Origin: Candidatus Magasanikiibacteriota bacterium
GTDB taxonomy: Bacteria; Patescibacteriota; Patescibacteriia; Magasanikbacterales; UBA922
Length of the DNA: 64,000 nucleotides
Assembly (NCBI GenBank): GCA_041674805.1
Contig: JBAYVA010000001.1
Span: 198,612 to 262,611 of the forward strand
Reading direction: 5' to 3'
Shown: positions 12,206 through 50,321 of the stretch, piece after piece
Numbering within the stretch: position 1 is the first letter of the stretch
Layout of the letters: each line of letters starts with the position of its first letter
Translations under genes and position numbers: made by a program
The notes under the pieces: generated by a model
What the model saw: only the letters and a program-made list of their open reading frames with translations
What the model was told of the DNA's origin: nothing
Databases searched by the model: none

Positions 12206-12778
12206 ATGATGATTTTTGATGATTCTTTTTACGAAAAAACTGATAATGAATTAGTAGCCTTAAGTCTGCAAAATCAAGAATATTTTGTACATTTGGTACG
12301 TAGATACGAAAGAAAATTATTGTCTTATATCATACGTATTTCAGGTATAAAATATGAAGATGCCGAAGATGTTTTGCAAGATGCTTTTGTCAGTATGTTT
12401 TTGAAGTTGAACAGTTTTGATCCCAAAATGAAATTTTCTTCTTGGGCTTATCGTATAGTACACAATCAGACTATTACAGATTTTCGTAAAAGAAAAGTAA
12501 GGCCAGTGCAATATTTTGAAGAGAGTGATCTGATAAAATTGGTAGATAGCATGGAGACGGACAATCATTTTGACAAAAAGTTGTTGAAAGAAGAGATTAC
12601 TACTATTTTGGATAAGATGGATGAAAAATATAGGGAAGTATTGGTCTTAAAATTTTTGGAAGAAAAAGATTATAATGAAATATCAGATATCTTGAAAAAA
12701 CCAGTAGGAACGGTTGGGACTTTGTTAAATAGAGCTAAGAAAAAATTTCGTTCAATATATGAAAAAATAAATAAATAA
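12206..12778 (+). CDS. ECF-type RNA polymerase sigma factor (sigma-70 family, regions 2 and 4)
   Basis: FSSWAYRIVHNQTITDFRKRK (region 2) and YREVLVLKFLEEKDYNEISDILKKPVGTVGTLLNRAKKKF (region 4 HTH). Confidence 0.8.
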   Translation: MMIFDDSFYEKTDNELVALSLQNQEYFVHLVRRYERKLLSYIIRISGIKYEDAEDVLQDAFVSMFLKLNSFDPKMKFSSWAYRIVHNQTITDFRKRKVRPVQYFEESDLIKLVDSMETDNHFDKKLLKEEITTILDKMDEKYREVLVLKFLEEKDYNEISDILKKPVGTVGTLLNRAKKKFRSIYEKINK

Positions 12779-12779
12779 T

Positions 12780-13574
12780 ATGACAGATTTAGCAAAAAAA
12801 ATATTAGAGACAATCAAAGAAAAAAAATTGAAGCCAGATGCTAGAATCAAATTTTTGATAATTAGTTATTTTTGGGCATTTTTGGCTTTTTTGATGGTTG
12901 TTTTTGGTTCTTTGGCTGTTTCAGTAATGATTTTTTATTTGAAAAATGAAGATTGGGAAATGTATAGTAAAGCCGGTTTTTCCAAATTGAATATGATACT
13001 TTTGTCTGTTCCTTATTTTTGGATTATTTTGTCAGCTTTGTTTATTCTTGGAGCTTATTACAATTTTCGTCATACTAAATTTGGTTATCGTTATAGATTT
13101 TCAATTGTTGTAGCTATTTATTTTGTCTTTACTTTGTTAGTTGGTTCTTTGTCTTATTCTTTGGGAGTAGGTGAAAAAATGGAAGGAATGTTTTACAACA
13201 ATAATTTGGTTTTTTATGGCAAAATGTTGGATAAAAGACAAGAAATGTGGCACAAACCAGATATGGGATTTGTCATTGGCGAGGTAATTTCTATGGATTT
13301 GAGAAAAAATCAAATAAAATTAATTGATCCTGAAAATAATGAATGGATTGTAGATATTTCCAAAGCAATTTTACCTCCATTTTTGTCGCTTGATATGCCA
13401 CACAAAATAAGAGTAATAGGAAAAATTATTTCTAATAACGAAATAAAGGCTGAAATAATTAAACCATTTTTTATTGAACCAGATAGGGATTGTCTCAATG
13501 ATCCTCGAGGATGTAATTTGATTCATCGACCAATGATGAAAGAAAACATGATTAGATTGCGTATTATTAATTGA
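12780..13574 (+). CDS. Membrane protein, candidate anti-sigma factor (start is 2 nt after the sigma-factor stop)
   Basis: Four TM helices plus a C-terminal extracytoplasmic domain. The call rests on position only. Confidence 0.4.
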   Translation: MTDLAKKILETIKEKKLKPDARIKFLIISYFWAFLAFLMVVFGSLAVSVMIFYLKNEDWEMYSKAGFSKLNMILLSVPYFWIILSALFILGAYYNFRHTKFGYRYRFSIVVAIYFVFTLLVGSLSYSLGVGEKMEGMFYNNNLVFYGKMLDKRQEMWHKPDMGFVIGEVISMDLRKNQIKLIDPENNEWIVDISKAILPPFLSLDMPHKIRVIGKIISNNEIKAEIIKPFFIEPDRDCLNDPRGCNLIHRPMMKENMIRLRIIN

Positions 13575-13624
13575 TAGTGAGCTCACACAATTTTAATCTA
13601 TTTTAATCGAGATAATAAAAATAT

Positions 13625-14271
13625 ATGAAAAAAACGACTTTAGGTATCTTTGGTATTTCGGCATTAGGATTAGCTTTGGCTAGTACAGGTATTGCTCAAG
13701 CAGCTAATAATAATTCTAGTCAAAACACAAGCATGACTAGAAAAAATTTTGATGGAAATCGTTATAATCAAATGCAACAAATTTTTGAAGCTACTGATTA
13801 TAATTCTTGGAAAAAACTAGTTTCTCAAGATGAAAGAGCTAGCAGAATTTTGGAAGTTATCAATGAAAGTAATTTTCCAAAATTATTGGAAATGCACAAA
13901 TTGATGCAAGCGGGTGACAAAGATAGTGCTAACGCTATTCGTGAAGAATTAGGTCTAAAACAAAATGGCAAAATGGGTAGAGGCCCTTTTGATAAAGAAT
14001 CCTATGAAATTACAAAAACAGCAATAGAAGATTCAGATTATGCTGCTTGGAAAATAGCTGTTGCTCAAATGCCAAATGCAGAAAATATGCTAGCCCCAAA
14101 ATAACTGAAAATAATTTTTCTAAACTTGTAGAGATGCATAATCTTATGCAAGCAGGGGATAGAGAAGCTGCTGAGACTATTCGTGAAGATCTTGGATTAG
14201 AAAAATTTGGTATGGGCAAAGGCGGTATGATGAGAGGTGGTAGAAACTTTGAAAAAAATACTGCTAAATAA
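13625..14271 (+). CDS. Secreted protein with two about 60-aa internal repeats. It is split into ORFs 13625-14104 and 14047-14271 by a -1 frame change at the C_CCA_AAA heptamer (14095-14101), which is immediately followed by a TAA stop.
   Basis: Signal peptide. The repeat ESNFPKLLEMHKLMQAGDKDSANAIREELGL recurs as ENNFSKLVEMHNLMQAGDREAAETIREDLGL in the -1 frame. Confidence 0.5.
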
Positions 14272-14399
14272 CAAAATTAGAAACCTTTTTATTCATTTTT
14301 CACTTTTAGAGTGAAAAAGCAATTAAAAACACGCTGACCAAACATTAGCGTGTTTTGCTTTTTTGTGATAAAATATTTGTATAAATTATTAATTTTTTT

Positions 14400-14846
14400 A
14401 TGGAAAATCAAAATCAAATAGCTAATATAAAAAAAATGTCTTGGATTTTTTGGTTTAGTTTTTTAGCTGCTATTTTTATTTATACTTATATTGTCTATAC
14501 ATTGAGTAATGTTCCAAGTCAAGACTTGTCGCCTGTGAGTTCTACAATGAAAAATGTTTTTTATGTTTTGTCTATTATTTCTGCGATAATTTCTTTATTT
14601 GTGGTAGATCGTGTTTTCAAAAGTAAATTTGATAAACAAAATCAAACAACTCAAATTGACAAATATGAAGCTTTGAAACTTTATTATACTTATTTTATTA
14701 TCAAATTAGCTTTTGCTGAAAGTATAGTCGTTTTTGGATTGGTTTTGTCTTTTATGGGTAGTGAAAAGATGAGTATATTTCTTCCTTTTGCTATTTTTTC
14801 TTCTTTGGTTTTGCTTTTCAACAGACCAAAAGAAACTAATATTTAA
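14400..14846 (+). CDS. Hypothetical membrane protein (4 TM)
   Basis: ORF with hydrophobic segments; no recognisable motif. Confidence 0.4.
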   Translation: MENQNQIANIKKMSWIFWFSFLAAIFIYTYIVYTLSNVPSQDLSPVSSTMKNVFYVLSIISAIISLFVVDRVFKSKFDKQNQTTQIDKYEALKLYYTYFIIKLAFAESIVVFGLVLSFMGSEKMSIFLPFAIFSSLVLLFNRPKETNI

Positions 14847-14855
14847 GTTTTTATT

Positions 14856-15593
14856 ATGAACAAAAAAAATATCTTAATTTTGGTTTCGTCAATTTTATTG
14901 GTAGCAATTGCGTTGTTTGCTTATATGTTTTTGAACAAACAAAAACCTATTGAAGAAGTAGTACAGTTTGAAGAAATTCTCTTGGTAGATGATAAGGGAT
15001 ATTCAAATATAAATACTTTAAATTTAGATAAAAATTTGGAAAAAACTAAGATAGTAGAGTTGTCTAAAGTAGAAATAGATGATTTGTCTTTTATGAGAGA
15101 AGAAGAAAAGATGGCTCATGATATTTACAAAGTTTTGTTTGATAATTTTGGACAAATTGTTTTTGAAAATATTTATAAAAGTGAACAAACACATACTGAA
15201 GCTATCAAAAAACTTTTGGACAAATATGAATTGGGAGATATTGTGAGAGACAACAACGTAGGTTCTTTTGAAAATGCTGAATTAAAAAAGATGTATATAG
15301 AATTGTTGGAAAAAGGCACAAAGACAATAAAAACTTCTTTTGAAGTGGGTGCTATGGTAGAAGAAATAGATATTTTGGATTTGCAAGAAAAAATAAAAAA
15401 TACAGATAAACAAGATATTATTTTTGTTTACGAAAATTTGATGAAAGGATCTCGCAATCATTTGCGTGCTTTTGTTAAAAATTATGAAAATTTAACTGGT
15501 CAAAAATATGTACCGCAATATTTATCACAAGCAGAGTATGATAATATTTTGAGTATGCAAGTAGAAAGAGGCAATAATAAAAACAATAAATAA
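14856..15593 (+). CDS. Ferritin-like domain protein (DUF2202-like), membrane anchored
   Basis: EEEKMAHDIYKVL...NIYKSEQTHTEAIKKLLDKYEL ferritin-like diiron-type helix pair. Confidence 0.5.
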   Translation: MNKKNILILVSSILLVAIALFAYMFLNKQKPIEEVVQFEEILLVDDKGYSNINTLNLDKNLEKTKIVELSKVEIDDLSFMREEEKMAHDIYKVLFDNFGQIVFENIYKSEQTHTEAIKKLLDKYELGDIVRDNNVGSFENAELKKMYIELLEKGTKTIKTSFEVGAMVEEIDILDLQEKIKNTDKQDIIFVYENLMKGSRNHLRAFVKNYENLTGQKYVPQYLSQAEYDNILSMQVERGNNKNNK

Positions 15594-15641: not shown

Positions 15642-16175
15642 TTAAGAAATTTTTTGAGTTTTTCTTATAGCAAAAATTTTTGATTGAAGCAATATTAATT
15701 CAGCTACTCCTACAAACATAGTTACATAAAACATATCAGCAATCAAACTGTTGCGGAAAAAAGGTAATGCCATATAATAACTTTGTATCAAGCCAGCAAA
15801 ATTGTGAGTATACATTGTACCAAAAGCCCAGACACTAAAATTGGTGATTAAGAAGAATAAAGCAGAACCAGCAATAGTAGCAAAAACTGTATTAGTGATA
15901 TTTTTGTGTTGTTTTAACCAAGTACCAAGTAGAGTAGCCAAGATAAAACTAGCATAAACACTAAACATGATTGGTAAAGAATAAAATCCCAAGAAAATAT
16001 CGCTTATAAGCATAGCTACAACGGGAATGATAACATTGAGCCTATGAGGTAAATAAAGCCCGGAAAAGAGAGCTAGAGCCATTATAGGAGCGAAATTAGC
16101 AGGGTGAGGGAGTAATCGTAGTACAAAGCCAACGATTATCATTGTAACTATTAGAATTAGGTGTTTTTTGTTCAT
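15642..16175 (-). CDS. ECF-transporter S-component-like (substrate capture) membrane protein. It is the last gene of the DUF4430/alpha-toroid operon and a candidate cobalamin S component.
   Basis: 177 aa with 5-6 TM helices and an LRLLPHPANFAPIMALALFSG N-terminal signature resembling the S-component/DUF6580 family. Confidence 0.4.
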   Translation of the reverse strand: MNKKHLILIVTMIIVGFVLRLLPHPANFAPIMALALFSGLYLPHRLNVIIPVVAMLISDIFLGFYSLPIMFSVYASFILATLLGTWLKQHKNITNTVFATIAGSALFFLITNFSVWAFGTMYTHNFAGLIQSYYMALPFFRNSLIADMFYVTMFVGVAELILLQSKIFAIRKTQKIS

Positions 16176-16259
16176 AGGTGTTAAAGGCTTGAAATGCCTG
16201 AAAAGCTAGAAAGGCTCAAAAGGCTTTAATGTGTGAATATTATAGCAGTGTTTATTATA

Positions 16260-18470
16260 TTAGACAAATAATTTGAAGACAAGAAAAAGTCCATATAATA
16301 ATGCACCTAAACCTAGCGAAATTGCTATTTTTTTATTTGCTGGTAATTTTTCTTGTTCTGTAGTTTCAGATATATTTTCTGAAGAATTATCAACATCTTC
16401 AAAAATTTCTTCATCTTCAGTTTCTTCTACTGAATCTTGTTCTTCTACTATTTTTTCACCACGTGTTTCTTCTATTTTTGGATTATTATTTGAATTATTT
16501 TTTGGTTTAGAATTTGTTTTTGCTATATCTAATATATTTTCTTCTATAGTATAAAGCACTGGTAAAATTTCCATGTCTTGTTCATTTTCTGCTACTTCTA
16601 CTATTTCTTCGGTACTAGTTGGCATTTCTTCTTCTAAAACAATTTCAATTGTAGTTGTAGGGATTTGTAGAGTGGTGGTTGCTGTATTTGAATTTGAAAT
16701 ATTTTCATTTGAAATGTTTGTTTTAGAAAAATCTTTTAAAATTTCATTCCAATTTTTATTCAAATAAGCTGGGATAGCATAAGATGTAATCCAAACCCTG
16801 GTTTGTTCAGTATTCTCTTCTTTTGAGGATATTCCACCATCTGATTGTTGTGCTGATTTTAGATAATCACTAGGTGTAGTTCCATTTTTATTCCAATCAT
16901 TTTCATTTTCATCAAGTGCATCAATAGCTTGTAGTGCCCAAGTTGTAGAAAATAAATTTGAATTAAAACTAGAATTATTATCTTGTTTTGATTTTAAATA
17001 ATTTTTTGCAGACTCAATTGCTAATATCACATTTTCATTTGTAGTATTCAAAGATTTTAAAGCTTGGATAGCTGCTGCAGTCATATCTATATCACCAAAA
17101 TTACCTATTTTAGTATTTTGTTTAGAAAGTAAAAAATCAGTGCTTATTTTGATTATTTCATCTTCATAGTTATAACCAGCATTAACAAGAGTAATAATAC
17201 CAAATATATCATCATTATAAAGAGTATTTTCGCCTATTTGTTTTCCATCAAAACTCTCTATTATTTTTTGAATATAATTTATAGAAGATGAATTATATGG
17301 ATTTTTATCTAAAGACATTAAAGCCATGGCTCTACGTTCATAATCTGTTATTTCAGAATTATCTGAAAGGGGATTATTTATTAAATAATTTGCAATACTT
17401 TCTTTTTGTTGAGAATTATTTGAATAGCTACCATAAGCAATTGCTGCCCAATCAGTATATAATGTAGAATCAAAAAAATTTCCGTTTTCAATTTTTGAGT
17501 TTAGATATACAAAAGCATTATCTATAAAATTATTTGTTGTATTAGATGAAGAGGATCCATTACTTTCAGATGGAGTATTTGTTGTTATATCATTTTCTTC
17601 TTCAGTGTTGTTAGAATTTTCTACTGGATTTATAGTCATTATTTCACTAGTAATAAATCCATTTTTTTTGGCATAAATTGTATAAGGTGTGGTAGTTGTA
17701 ATAAATAATTCATAAATACCGTCTTCATCAAAAATTTCTTCACCATTTAAAAATAATGTGCTACTAGCTGAATTTGATAATATTTCGTTCCAATTTTCAT
17801 CGTAACCAGAAGATTCTTTGATATTTAAAGTAGTTGTTGAATTTACAAAAGGTGTAGTAGTAGAAGTTTCAATTTTTAATTGAGATAATCCGTAAAATAA
17901 ATAAATATTTTCTTGTTCTTCTAATATTTCTTGATTAAGACCTTTGGTACCTGGTACATAATAATTATTGTACCATAACCAATAATTAAAATCAGAACCA
18001 TCATAATTATTTATTTTATTTAAAAAAACTTGATCACTATACCAATTTCCTAAAATAGCCCAATCTTTTTCTTTAGATAATTGTTGAATTGCACACCAAG
18101 CATTCAAAGTATTCTCTGTTCCGTTTTCAGTATTTGGACAAGCTGTAACAATAAAATCATTACTATATAATTCTTGATCATAAGTTTGTATTTGAAGATG
18201 AATTGTTGTCGTTGGCAATGGTTCAATTACAATATCATTATTTGGAATTTCTTCTGGTGTAGGTTCTTCAGTACTAGCTACTAAATTATTATCAGTGCTT
18301 AAAATAGCATTCTCAACTATAATTTCATCTTTTGTTTCTGTACTTTCTAAAATAAGAGGAACTTCTTCGGGATTTTCTCCCTCAGCATAAGCAAAATTTG
18401 ATATAGTCAAATTGCCAAATAAACTAAAGATTAAAACTAAATTTATTATTTTAAAATTTACTTTTTTCAT
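16260..18470 (-). CDS. Cell-surface protein with a prenyltransferase/squalene-cyclase-like alpha-alpha toroid repeat domain (transcobalamin alpha-domain-like) and a C-terminal TM anchor
   Basis: Signal peptide. Repeated helical-hairpin motifs (TDWAAIAYGSY, ERRAMALMSL, MTAAAIQALKSL, TTWALQAIDAL). Acidic region followed by a TM anchor at the C-terminus. Confidence 0.55.
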   Translation of the reverse strand: MKKVNFKIINLVLIFSLFGNLTISNFAYAEGENPEEVPLILESTETKDEIIVENAILSTDNNLVASTEEPTPEEIPNNDIVIEPLPTTTIHLQIQTYDQELYSNDFIVTACPNTENGTENTLNAWCAIQQLSKEKDWAILGNWYSDQVFLNKINNYDGSDFNYWLWYNNYYVPGTKGLNQEILEEQENIYLFYGLSQLKIETSTTTPFVNSTTTLNIKESSGYDENWNEILSNSASSTLFLNGEEIFDEDGIYELFITTTTPYTIYAKKNGFITSEIMTINPVENSNNTEEENDITTNTPSESNGSSSSNTTNNFIDNAFVYLNSKIENGNFFDSTLYTDWAAIAYGSYSNNSQQKESIANYLINNPLSDNSEITDYERRAMALMSLDKNPYNSSSINYIQKIIESFDGKQIGENTLYNDDIFGIITLVNAGYNYEDEIIKISTDFLLSKQNTKIGNFGDIDMTAAAIQALKSLNTTNENVILAIESAKNYLKSKQDNNSSFNSNLFSTTWALQAIDALDENENDWNKNGTTPSDYLKSAQQSDGGISSKEENTEQTRVWITSYAIPAYLNKNWNEILKDFSKTNISNENISNSNTATTTLQIPTTTIEIVLEEEMPTSTEEIVEVAENEQDMEILPVLYTIEENILDIAKTNSKPKNNSNNNPKIEETRGEKIVEEQDSVEETEDEEIFEDVDNSSENISETTEQEKLPANKKIAISLGLGALLYGLFLVFKLFV

Positions 18471-19050
18471 ATTTCCATTCTATATTATCCCCCGAATTAA
18501 CTTTTTGATAACTAATACCTATATTGGCACTTTTGCCATTTAGGTAGTAAATCCAATATAGTCCTTTTTCATTATCATTTTTTAAATTATTTATTTCTGT
18601 TACAAATTTTCCCATGCTACCGTAATCTTTTGTTTGAAAAATAAATTCAGATTTATTTTCATTTTGCAATTGTTGCATGAGTTTTTCTAGAATAATATTT
18701 TCTTCAGAAAAATTTATACGATAATTTTTATCATTGACTTTGAAATCTGCAAAGTAGGGAAGTTCTAATACTATTTTTTCTGTTTCTTTTGTACTTGTTG
18801 AGGTATTTGTTGCTACTATTTTTTCATTATTTTTTTTAATAGTAGGACTTGTTTTATTGATAGTTACTTTTGATTTTTCAATAATTGTTTTTTTTTCTTC
18901 TGGTTTATTTTCTGTTTGTTCTATTTTTTCAGCTTGCAAAATTTCTTCATTTTTTTTCAAATTTGTTTCTGGACGAAGAAAGAAAATTAACGAAGAAAAA
19001 AGAAGGGCAAAAAATATCAGCAAATGATATTTCCAATTTATTTTTTTCAT
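18451..19050 (-). CDS. DUF4430 (transcobalamin-like C-terminal/beta domain) protein, membrane anchored
   Basis: C-terminal GLYWIYYLNGKSANIGISYQKVNSGDNIEWKY matches the DUF4430 YW.Y.VNG...G...Y.LKdGD.I.W.Y signature. Confidence 0.6.
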   Translation of the reverse strand: MKKINWKYHLLIFFALLFSSLIFFLRPETNLKKNEEILQAEKIEQTENKPEEKKTIIEKSKVTINKTSPTIKKNNEKIVATNTSTSTKETEKIVLELPYFADFKVNDKNYRINFSEENIILEKLMQQLQNENKSEFIFQTKDYGSMGKFVTEINNLKNDNEKGLYWIYYLNGKSANIGISYQKVNSGDNIEWKYEKSKF

Positions 19051-19059
19051 AAAAAAAAT

Positions 19060-19245
19060 CTGCTTAAGTGAGCAGAAAGATGTAAAAATATTTCTTATTG
19101 TGATAAAAAATAAGAATTTTTTTCCTGCTCGGGATAAATTATACTTGAAGACCGGACTTAACTTTTGTAAAAGTTTTACCGTTGCGGCACAGTGGAGGAA
19201 TTTGACCTCACTTCCAACAAATATAAATTAATTTGTAATATTGTT
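19060..19245 (-). ncRNA. Candidate cobalamin riboswitch / structured attenuator leader upstream of the DUF4430 operon
   Basis: On the minus strand the leader reads GGAAGUGAGGUCAAAUUCCUCCACUGUGCCGCAACGGUAAAA...AAGUCCGGUCUUC. This resembles the cobalamin-aptamer GGUG.AA.UCC, CCACUGU, CCGCAACGGUAA and B12-box-like elements. Two hairpin+U-tract terminators follow; the second ends in U8 directly before the AUG. Confidence 0.4.
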
Positions 19246-20265: not shown

Positions 20266-20649
20266 TTACTTTTTTAGAGAATCTCTTATTTCTCGCAGTA
20301 AGCGAATGTCTTCTGGGGTTTCTTTTGGTTTTGTTTCTTCTTTTTTCTTGAATTTATTGATTTGTTTTATCATAATAAAGATAGCAAAAGAAATAATGAG
20401 AAAATCCAAAACATTATTTATAAAAGCACCATAATTCAAGGTTATTGCTTCTGTTGTTTCTGTAGCTTTTTTTAGAGTTATTGCTAATTTGGAAAAATCC
20501 ACACCACCAGAAATGAAGCCAATTGGTGGCATAATAATATCATTGACCAAAGAAGTCACAATTTTGCCAAAAGCTCCACCGATAACTACACCAACTGCCA
20601 TGTCTAAGACATTTCCTTTCATGGCAAATTTTTTGAATTCTTGAAACAT
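20266..20649 (-). CDS. mscL: Large-conductance mechanosensitive channel
   Basis: [31 protein letters not shown]...DIIMPPIG. Confidence 0.9.
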
Positions 20650-47071: not shown

Positions 47072-47383
47072 TTATTTTTTTAGTATTAAATTAAAATTAG
47101 TTAAATATTTATCCAAAACTTTGTGATTTAATTCGTAATAAACTTTTAAGCCTTGTTTTTCTGATTTTATTAACTCAAATTTCTTCAACACGCTTAGATG
47201 GTGCGAAACAAGATTTTGTGACAAGTCTAGATTGGGCCAGATTTCGCAGACGCATTTTGGTCCACTTTTCAAAATACACAAAATACGCATTCTGTTTTCT
47301 TCAGAAATTATTTTCAAAAAATCTACGGTCTTTTTTAAATCGTTACTTATTTTTTTGTTACTACAACATTTTACTTTTGGCAT
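47072..47383 (-). CDS. ArsR/SmtB family transcriptional regulator
   Basis: HTH region ILCILKSGPKCVCEI...NLVSHHLSVLKKFELI. Confidence 0.75.
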   Translation of the reverse strand: MPKVKCCSNKKISNDLKKTVDFLKIISEENRMRILCILKSGPKCVCEIWPNLDLSQNLVSHHLSVLKKFELIKSEKQGLKVYYELNHKVLDKYLTNFNLILKK

Positions 47384-48710: not shown

Positions 48711-49703
48711 TTATTCAATTCTAGCGACTAAATCTTGTATTTTGAATGTTGTAAAGTATAAATCAGCACACTCTATAGCAAAAACTTCAATATCATCACG
48801 ACCGTGTTCATCCAGCAAATCACGAATATTATTTATTTCTTTTAGAGGTACACCAATAGCCTTAATTATTTCTGGTAAAATTGATCTCATAGTACGGACT
48901 TCATGTGCTGATCCTAGAGGGGGTTTTTGAAAAGGAATTTTATTTTTATCAAGACATAAAATAATTCCTATATTGTTTGGTATATCAGATTCACCATTTA
49001 GAAGGTTGTTTGCTGTTGTTTGAAAAGTAGTATCATTACGATAGCTTCTTGTCCAATTTCTAAGTTTATTTTCATATTTTGTAGCCCTTTCTTTTTTAAT
49101 ACCTACTCTTTGTTTGTGCTTTTTAATATATTCTAATCCTGCCTTTGAGATTTTTTCGGCACGAACTGAATCTGCCATAAAAAATCTAAAAAAATCATTT
49201 GGATCACCAAGTTGCCATTCTGGCTTATTGTCTTTTGTCATGTATTTTGCTGCAAACCATTTTGCATAAAAATAGCTACCAGCTAAAGATACACTTTCCA
49301 TATCACCATCAGGCATCCAAGGGTCTTCATGAATTTTCAAACCTTCATCTAGAATTTTTTCAAAAAGTTGAACTGTATTAGGGGTATCTTGTTGATCAGT
49401 ACTATATTTGTCCCTATCATATTTATAAAAACCTGTACCATGATATAATAAATCTTTTTTTAATCCTTCTTCTGGTGTGCCAAAAAGTTTTTCTAGTTGT
49501 TTTTTTTGTTCTTTATAAGCTGTATTGACTTCTGGACTTGGAAGTCCTTCTACATCTAAATATTCTATGATTTTTTTATCAAGTAATTCGGGTGTTCGTA
49601 TTCTTATCATTTCTAAAAGAAATTGTTTATTTTGTTCGTGTGTAGATTCTAGGAGTTCTTCTCCTGTTGCGAGCATATGCTCATATCTAGCTCTTTCACC
49701 CAT
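48711..49703 (-). CDS. Hypothetical protein (330 aa), adjacent to the intron-containing tRNA
   Basis: ORF only; no recognisable motif. Confidence 0.4.
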   Translation of the reverse strand: MGERARYEHMLATGEELLESTHEQNKQFLLEMIRIRTPELLDKKIIEYLDVEGLPSPEVNTAYKEQKKQLEKLFGTPEEGLKKDLLYHGTGFYKYDRDKYSTDQQDTPNTVQLFEKILDEGLKIHEDPWMPDGDMESVSLAGSYFYAKWFAAKYMTKDNKPEWQLGDPNDFFRFFMADSVRAEKISKAGLEYIKKHKQRVGIKKERATKYENKLRNWTRSYRNDTTFQTTANNLLNGESDIPNNIGIILCLDKNKIPFQKPPLGSAHEVRTMRSILPEIIKAIGVPLKEINNIRDLLDEHGRDDIEVFAIECADLYFTTFKIQDLVARIE

Positions 49704-49819
49704 AAAATTATTGTTATTTTTTATACTTTAATATATTCTACCATTTTTTAAAAAATAAATCTAAGTATTTTATATTTATATAACAAAAAAACGCTAATTA
49801 AAGCGTTTAAATGTGTTTG

Positions 49820-50321
49820 CTCGGCGAGTGGGGCTCGAACCCACGACCCACTGGTTACAGTTTCCTCTCTCTTTCGAAAAAGACTGGACTATTTCATCAC
49901 CCATGCCATAAGCCCCGATAAATCGGGGAGCATTAAGGGTGCGGAGCGCTTCGAATCCGTTTCTGCGAATCCTACTCCCACAAGGGGATAGTCTCTGAAC
50001 CTTCTTATTTTTTCAGAAGTATTTGTTTATAGACAAACCTTGAAAACAAGGATCTACAATTTATTACTTCAATTTTACCGAGGTAAAAATTTGAAAAGAT
50101 AAGCTTGGCTGCAGGTTGCCATCTTGACCTAAATCAAGAACAGGTTTCCTGTCTAACAAATCTATTTAGATCTGCAGTTTCTGCTATTACAATTAAGTAA
50201 GACAGAACAGTTCACTCCGTTGGCACTGTGGTGTTTCCACCGCAGGCTGCTATATTTAATTCCAATAAATCAGAATTACTTCTTTTAACAGCCAGTTGCT
50301 CTACCGCTGAGCTACCGCCGA
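49820..50321 (-). tRNA. tRNA-Asn(GUU) interrupted by a ~430-nt group I intron in the anticodon loop. Exons are 50288-50321 and 49820-49857; the intron is 49858-50287. CCA is not encoded.
   Basis: The joined exons give a 72-nt cloverleaf: UCGGCGG-UA-GCUC-AGCGGUA-GAGC-A-ACUGG-CUGUUAA-CCAGU-GGGUC-GUGGG-UUCGAGC-CCCAC-UCGCCGA-G. The intron carries group I R (GUUCAGAGACUA) and S (AAAUAGUCC) elements forming P7. The 5' exon ends in U and the intron ends in G. Confidence 0.65.

Follow-up and report, generated by a model that had tools for sequence, protein, structure and literature searches.

The −1 frameshift sites of Escherichia coli dnaX and of the IS3/IS911 orfAB genes are conserved across homologs. 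Each combines an in-phase slippery heptamer, X_XXA_AAG or A_AAA_AAA/G, with a hairpin or pseudoknot 5–9 nt downstream and/or an upstream SD-like element (PMC4066793). The heptamer CCCAAAA has been measured in E. coli, where the bare motif gave 0.192% −1 shifting in the absence of a stimulator (PMC4066793, Table S3), about 3.5 times background; the IS911 stimulators raised this to 0.442% and the IS3 pseudoknot to 16.9%, and X_XXA_AAG motifs performed far better (PMC4066793). Slippage may also act on real mutations. In “savior” or compensated indels (“pseudo-pseudogenes”), documented for a G-run of herpes TK and for interrupted Bifidobacterium pili genes, a short-run indel lies inside a functional gene and slippage could restore some full-length product (PMC5009743).

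Here we analyzed a 64,000-nt stretch of DNA (the window) from a metagenome-assembled genome of Candidatus Magasanikbacteria (CPR/Patescibacteria), in which a gene for a secreted repeat protein changes frame at a C_CCA_AAA heptamer. We read the break as a real, recent frameshift mutation, private to this genome, which leaves the protein with one and a half modules; any slippage would be incidental and at trace level. We put the probability of this reading at roughly 0.72. The window is AT-rich (30.7% G+C) and belongs to a contig of 743,922 bp. Translation table 11 ORFs of normal lengths fill 84% of the window, which rules out an alternative genetic code for it. ARAGORN in its default mode reported no tRNA in the whole window; when introns were allowed, it detected a 73-nt tRNA, corresponding to a tRNA-Thr(UGU) gene on the minus strand (49819–50321), in which a group I intron of 430 nt (Rfam RF00028 at 49865–50281, 65.7 bits, E = 2e-14) splits the anticodon loop. 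A 330-aa ORF adjoins this gene on the same strand (48711–49703) and had no Pfam match at E ≤ 0.001.

The features of the locus are listed in the table. In Magasanikbacteria the repeat-protein gene occupies the third position of a cluster with the order ECF sigma factor, membrane anti-sigma-like protein, repeat protein, membrane protein and DUF2202 protein. The terminator-like hairpin falls 3′ of the −1-frame stop, so that the transcription unit fits the full-length gene. Beyond the cluster, an AdoCbl riboswitch (19106–19242, minus strand, 62.3 bits) lies upstream of a minus-strand operon (region 15642–19242), which looks like a unit for B12 capture and uptake in a CPR genome.

Features of the repeat-protein locus and of the neighboring riboswitch-preceded operon (window coordinates)
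Feature	Coordinates	Strand	Remarks
ECF-type sigma-70 factor	12206–12778	+	opens the conserved cluster; 78–83% identical in the closest syntenic orthologous loci
Multi-pass membrane protein occupying the anti-sigma position	12780–13574	+	no family match; putative role from position alone
Repeat-protein gene, 0-frame ORF WC070_00985 (MFA7244737.1), 159 aa	13625–14104	+	signal peptide, whole helical module 1 and first half of module 2
C_CCA_AAA heptamer (C4A4) in X_XXY_YYZ phase, site of the frame break	14095–14101	+	read from the sequence; same in the independent Logan assembly (possibly the same reads)
0-frame TAA stop abutting the heptamer	14102–14104	+	read from the sequence
−1-frame continuation, 56 codons plus stop	14101–14271	+	last two helices of module 2 and Gly/Met-rich tail; no decay
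WC070_00990 (MFA7244738.1), annotated 41-aa gene	14146–14271	+	3′ part of the −1-frame continuation
Weak AU-rich hairpin, core GCAUA (14136–14140) / UAUGC (14145–14149)	14125–14151	+	within the VEMHNLMQ codons; not credible as a stimulator
Intrinsic-terminator-like hairpin and T-run	14326–14365	+	sole such site on the plus strand in 13400–14500
148-aa membrane protein	14400–14846	+	conserved downstream neighbor
DUF2202 ferritin-like protein	14856–15593	+	conserved downstream neighbor
DUF6580 membrane protein	15642–16175	−	riboswitch-preceded operon
736-aa secreted protein	16260–18470	−	riboswitch-preceded operon; weak transcobalamin-like Cobalamin_bind match (E = 4e-4)
DUF4430 protein	18451–19050	−	riboswitch-preceded operon

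The 0-frame ORF ends CTA GCC CCA AAA TAA (L A P K stop), with CCCAAAA in canonical X_XXY_YYZ phase, as the initial annotation had it. Its claim that the product is secreted agrees with a Sec-type signal peptide, MKKTTLGIFGISALGLALASTGIAQA (13625–13702), after which the protein continues with ANN. The −1 frame read from position 14101 is ITENNFSKLVEMHNLMQAGDREAAETIREDLGLEKFGMGKGGMMRGGRNFEKNTAK, with a stop at 14269–14271, and the joined protein has 215 aa. This frame had been taken for a second copy of a repeat present upstream, and the alignment scores bear this out: module 1 against module 2 scored 163 (shuffles, 25.8 ± 4.8), and the post-shift part by itself scored 123 (shuffles, 24.2 ± 4.8). 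Peptides encoded in the −1 frame include ITENNFSK, LVEMHNLMQAGDR and EAAETIR. An open −1 frame of 57 codons is uncommon, since just 1.4% of such −1-frame windows in the long ORFs of this window were free of stops. In the NCBI annotation, the locus appears as WC070_00985 (159 aa) and WC070_00990 (41 aa), each a hypothetical protein of its own; these are two fragments of a single gene, and WC070_00990 corresponds to the tail of the repeat-protein gene beyond the frameshift. Independent translation of the downstream part was considered and rejected, because a start at either in-frame ATG (14134 or 14146) would yield a peptide of 41–45 aa that lacks a signal peptide.

The heptamer alone is unremarkable. 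In the window ORFs, 277 of 17,692 codon positions carry an in-phase X_XXY_YYZ site, CCCAAAA occurs in phase 4 times, and 3 of the 67 ORFs end in a heptamer plus stop. What exceeds chance is the frame break within a homologous gene, not the “signal”. Two minus-strand ORFs elsewhere in the window have similar ends: one at 20266–20649 ends in an in-phase A_AAA_AAG TAA, and an ArsR-type regulator ORF at 47072–47383 ends in an in-phase A_AAA_AAA TAA, where its stop and the start of a complete thioredoxin-fold gene overlap, as in normal operon coupling.

Neither Pfam nor NCBIfam assigned a family to the fused protein, and Pfam assigned none to any of the 14 aligned homologs. A profile search against PDB sequences returned only noise (E ≥ 0.03). 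An AlphaFold2 model based on the 14 homologs predicted two confident helical modules (residues 44–109 and 124–190, pLDDT about 85–95), for which Foldseek found no structural neighbor in the PDB (best E, 0.24). An exhaustive profile search yielded 2,635 cluster representatives at E ≤ 1e-3, of which 205 reached E ≤ 1e-30. The helical module (DYxxW ... NFxKLxEMHxLMxxG ... IRxELGL) is present in one to three copies, natural one-module and three-module members exist, and a Gly/Met-rich C-terminal tail is often present. Most of the best 150 of the 2,635 representatives are 180–300 aa long, with both modules matched in one stretch; two modules in one frame are, by these sequence matches, the usual form of the family. 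The break at residue 159 takes away the last two helices of module 2, which hold the most conserved motif of the family (NFxKLxEMHxLMQxGDxxxAxxIRxELGL).

In the loci examined (window 13625–14271 and L002–L084), the repeat-protein genes adjoin an ECF sigma factor. In being small, secreted and all-helical, and in having its gene next to an envelope-stress-type (ECF) regulator, the repeat protein resembles the extracytoplasmic stress proteins of the Spy/CpxP/ZraP type, and one homolog (P0015) carries a Spy/CpxP label from JGI. However, the window protein matched neither LTXXQ (PF07813) nor Metal_resist (PF13801) at E ≤ 1, a sub-threshold Metal_resist match (E = 0.0018) was seen in only 1 of the 14 members, and the PDB comparison gave no structural match. 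The Spy/CpxP identity was thus not supported by these profiles or by structure comparison.

Comparison with orthologs showed that the frame break is not shared. The closest homologs (P0002–P0006; 221–228 aa, 53–57% identity) read in one frame over 97–99% of the fused protein. At the DNA level, no frame change was found at the equivalent site in 83 loci (80 metagenome loci and 3 GTDB genomes), a comparison that spans only distances beyond genus or species, since the nearest relative in the collections searched is about 57% identical. Two-frame motif matches in L015, L043, L054/L056 and L077/L079 proved on inspection by eye to be one-module genes, neighboring genes or spurious matches, not frameshifts. 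In L002, L003, L083 and other loci, an intact repeat gene is flanked in the same order by the sigma factor gene (78–83% identical), the anti-sigma-like gene, the membrane protein gene and the DUF2202 gene; because of this conserved order, these intact genes are true orthologs. At the site of the break, orthologs have ATG CTC GAA AAA GTA AAT or ATG CTT GAA ACA ATA AAT, with neither a C/A tract nor an in-phase heptamer.

The spacing between the repeat motifs indicates the type of indel. In repeat 1 of the window gene, and in both repeats of all close orthologs, 72 nt separate the DYxxW motif from the NF motif, whereas in the window gene's repeat 2 the two motifs are 74 nt apart. Internal alignment of the module 1 and module 2 proteins placed a one-residue gap exactly at LA(P)K. 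The initial annotation had offered a 1-nt homopolymer indel as one account; an indel is supported, but 74 nt against the conserved 72 nt points to an insertion of two nucleotides rather than a change of one. The event was probably a +2 insertion, such as CC into GCC|AAA, as far as the sequence comparison can indicate. This is favored because a 1-nt deletion or miscall needs a prior, private insertion of a codon at the same spot. Since a +2 insertion would itself build C_CCA_AAA, the heptamer would then not be independent evidence for recoding.

We then considered programmed −1 frameshifting, in which a set fraction of ribosomes would slip at C_CCA_AAA, helped by the adjacent stop, and the 159-aa and 215-aa proteins would both be intended. 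The arrangement invites this reading: as in dnaX and IS3/IS911, the heptamer is in phase with a lysine codon in the A site, and it is followed by a 0-frame stop and by a meaningful, intact 56-codon extension in the −1 frame, homologous to module 1 and to the orthologs. The motif is measurably shift-prone in E. coli, up to 16.9% with a strong pseudoknot, and the terminator sits 3′ of the −1 ORF. The stimulators typical of bacterial sites, located about 5–9 nt downstream or, for an SD-like element, about 10–14 nt upstream, were not found. Downstream structure was not significant relative to shuffled sequences (z = −0.26 for 99 nt, −1.78 for 59 nt and −1.54 for 171 nt, with pseudoknots outside the prediction). 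The 59-nt downstream fold had −11.4 kcal/mol, versus −10.5, −8.9 and −5.2 in unshifted orthologs and −9.4 in repeat 1 of the window gene. The hairpin that had been placed about 25 nt downstream does pair as GCAUA/UAUGC; its distance was misjudged, the core being 34 nt and the extended minimum-free-energy stem 23 nt from the heptamer, both beyond the usual 5–9 nt. It stems from the EMHNLMQ codons and is not specific to the shifted gene. No GGAGG-like sequence occurs within 20 nt upstream of the heptamer, and a permissive Rfam scan of 13950–14400 returned no frameshift element. Given that no stimulator was found and that the bare motif yields 0.192% in E. coli, a trace of full-length product at most is expected.

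The window site differs further from dnaX and IS3/IS911 in that its Z base is A (about 0.19% unaided) and its arrangement occurs in one genome only, being seen in 0 of the 83 related loci and in none of the full-length protein hits. The shifted product would be one residue longer than the conserved spacing allows, and in-phase heptamers are common in this AT-rich genome. We regard programmed frameshifting as very improbable. Of the two readings that the initial annotation had set side by side, the uninterrupted, single-frame syntenic orthologs and the missing stimulatory element speak against programmed frameshifting and support the indel, or fresh pseudogene.

We also considered whether the break is a sequencing or consensus error, in which case the gene would be intact and the true genome would have one base more (C5A4 or C4A5) or two bases less. 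The Logan assembly of run SRR6484325, produced by a different pipeline, contains a 7,606-bp contig that is identical over 4,450 nt, including C4A4, although the two assemblies may share reads. The agreement of two different assemblers over 4.45 kb argues against an error, as does the short length of the runs: short-read consensus is not prone to errors at runs of 4 nt. Every ORF end in the 64 kb was screened for open out-of-frame continuations, and no other split gene was found, contrary to what noisy long-read data would give; the assembly is therefore not indel-ridden. The adjacent or overlapping ORF candidates from this screen turned out to be genes in their own right, with their Pfam domains complete (DUF4430, LGT, ArsR, thioredoxin, radical SAM and ICMT). 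A miscall of ±1 nt would also imply a true spacing of 75 nt, i.e., a unique codon insertion where the close orthologs and repeat 1 have 72 nt. On the other side, the junction sits in two adjoining 4-nt homopolymers, the remnant is undecayed and highly conserved, and no near-identical intact allele or second population was seen among the sequences searched. Because of the identical Logan assembly, the lack of other split genes and the spacing argument, an assembly or sequencing error appears unlikely as the source of the break.

The remnant shows no visible decay over 57 open codons, and it is 56–71% identical to the orthologs versus about 50% for the part before the break. The lack of decay suggests that the mutation was recent. 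An undecayed remnant would also suit a sequencing error or continued translation, and it keeps these rival readings alive. One of them is a compensated indel, in which the mutation is real and low incidental slippage supplies enough full-length protein to hold the remnant under selection. The intact, well-conserved remnant, the documented cases cited above and the activity of the heptamer over background in E. coli are in line with such compensation, and the locus shares with those cases a short-run indel in a functional gene. It differs in that nothing here indicates that slippage occurs or matters, and the truncation has no evident benefit. For a structural or chaperone-like secreted protein, about 0.2% is a very low yield to expect, nothing indicates long persistence of the remnant, and recency accounts for the same data more simply; we consider compensation quite unlikely. 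Just as unlikely, in our estimate, is a recent, lineage-specific gain of recoding in a CPR bacterium: ribosomes would slip −1 at C_CCA_AAA_UAA often enough to be useful, and selection, not recency, would explain why the remnant is intact. A literature search found no papers on programmed frameshifting in the Candidate Phyla Radiation, nor on SRR6484325.

The position of the break in homopolymers of a secreted-protein gene raised the further question of a phase-variable (contingency) switch, in which slipped-strand mispairing at the C/A tract would turn a surface or secreted protein on and off. Known phase-variable switches depend on runs of at least about 7 nt, whereas the tracts here are merely 4 nt each (C4 and A4). 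The Logan contig passes the site unbroken, and the orthologs lack a tract there (GAA AAA GTA or GAA ACA ATA). Phase variation is accordingly the least probable of the explanations weighed, and we give it hardly any credence. Transcriptional slippage needs runs longer than A4 or C4 and was rejected.

A recent, private mutation thus remains our preferred reading, and it can be set out as follows. The gene for a secreted two-module helical protein would have undergone a lineage-specific net change of +2/−1 nt at GCC CCA AAA. Insertion or duplication of CC into an ancestral GCC AAA ATA ACT (A K I T) would be the most economical account; it would set CCCC beside a pre-existing AAAA, creating the “slippery” C_CCA_AAA and bringing TAA at once into frame. 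What counts against this reading is that, under a mutation model, a stop abutting the heptamer is a coincidence of about 7% per codon (from the −1-frame stop-free statistics). Standard translation would then give the 159-aa secreted product, comprising the whole of module 1 and half of module 2, and the remaining 56 codons would be the undecayed remnant of a recent event. Incidental −1 slippage at C_CCA_AAA might add a trace of full-length protein at most (about 0.2%, from the E. coli measurement), and the truncated product may still function in the manner of the natural one-module members of the family.

So interpreted, the locus resembles an ordinary frameshift-disrupted gene of a reduced bacterial genome: a single frame break stands against intact, uninterrupted syntenic orthologs, the indel is not a multiple of three (74 versus 72 nt), the premature stop falls within a codon of the break, and a recognizable downstream remnant has been mis-annotated as a small gene (WC070_00990). 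It differs from the ordinary case in three respects. The remnant is wholly undecayed, which is compatible only with a recent event; the break happens to make a textbook X_XXY_YYZ plus stop; and the truncated product retains one complete module.

The feature is an ordinary one, one more broken gene in a metagenome-assembled genome and of a kind already known. It illustrates that an indel in adjoining short runs can mimic a frameshift signal, and that a slippery heptamer followed by a stop is, on its own, no independent proof of recoding. If slippage were functional, the site would be a rare, young −1 frameshift outside mobile elements in a CPR bacterium; were recoding true, one ECF-sigma-controlled gene would give both a one-and-a-half-module and a two-module secreted protein. 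The repeat-protein family has no Pfam or NCBIfam model and is currently undescribed there. With about 2,600 cluster representatives and a secreted helical module encoded, in the loci examined, beside an ECF sigma/anti-sigma pair, it may merit a description of its own.
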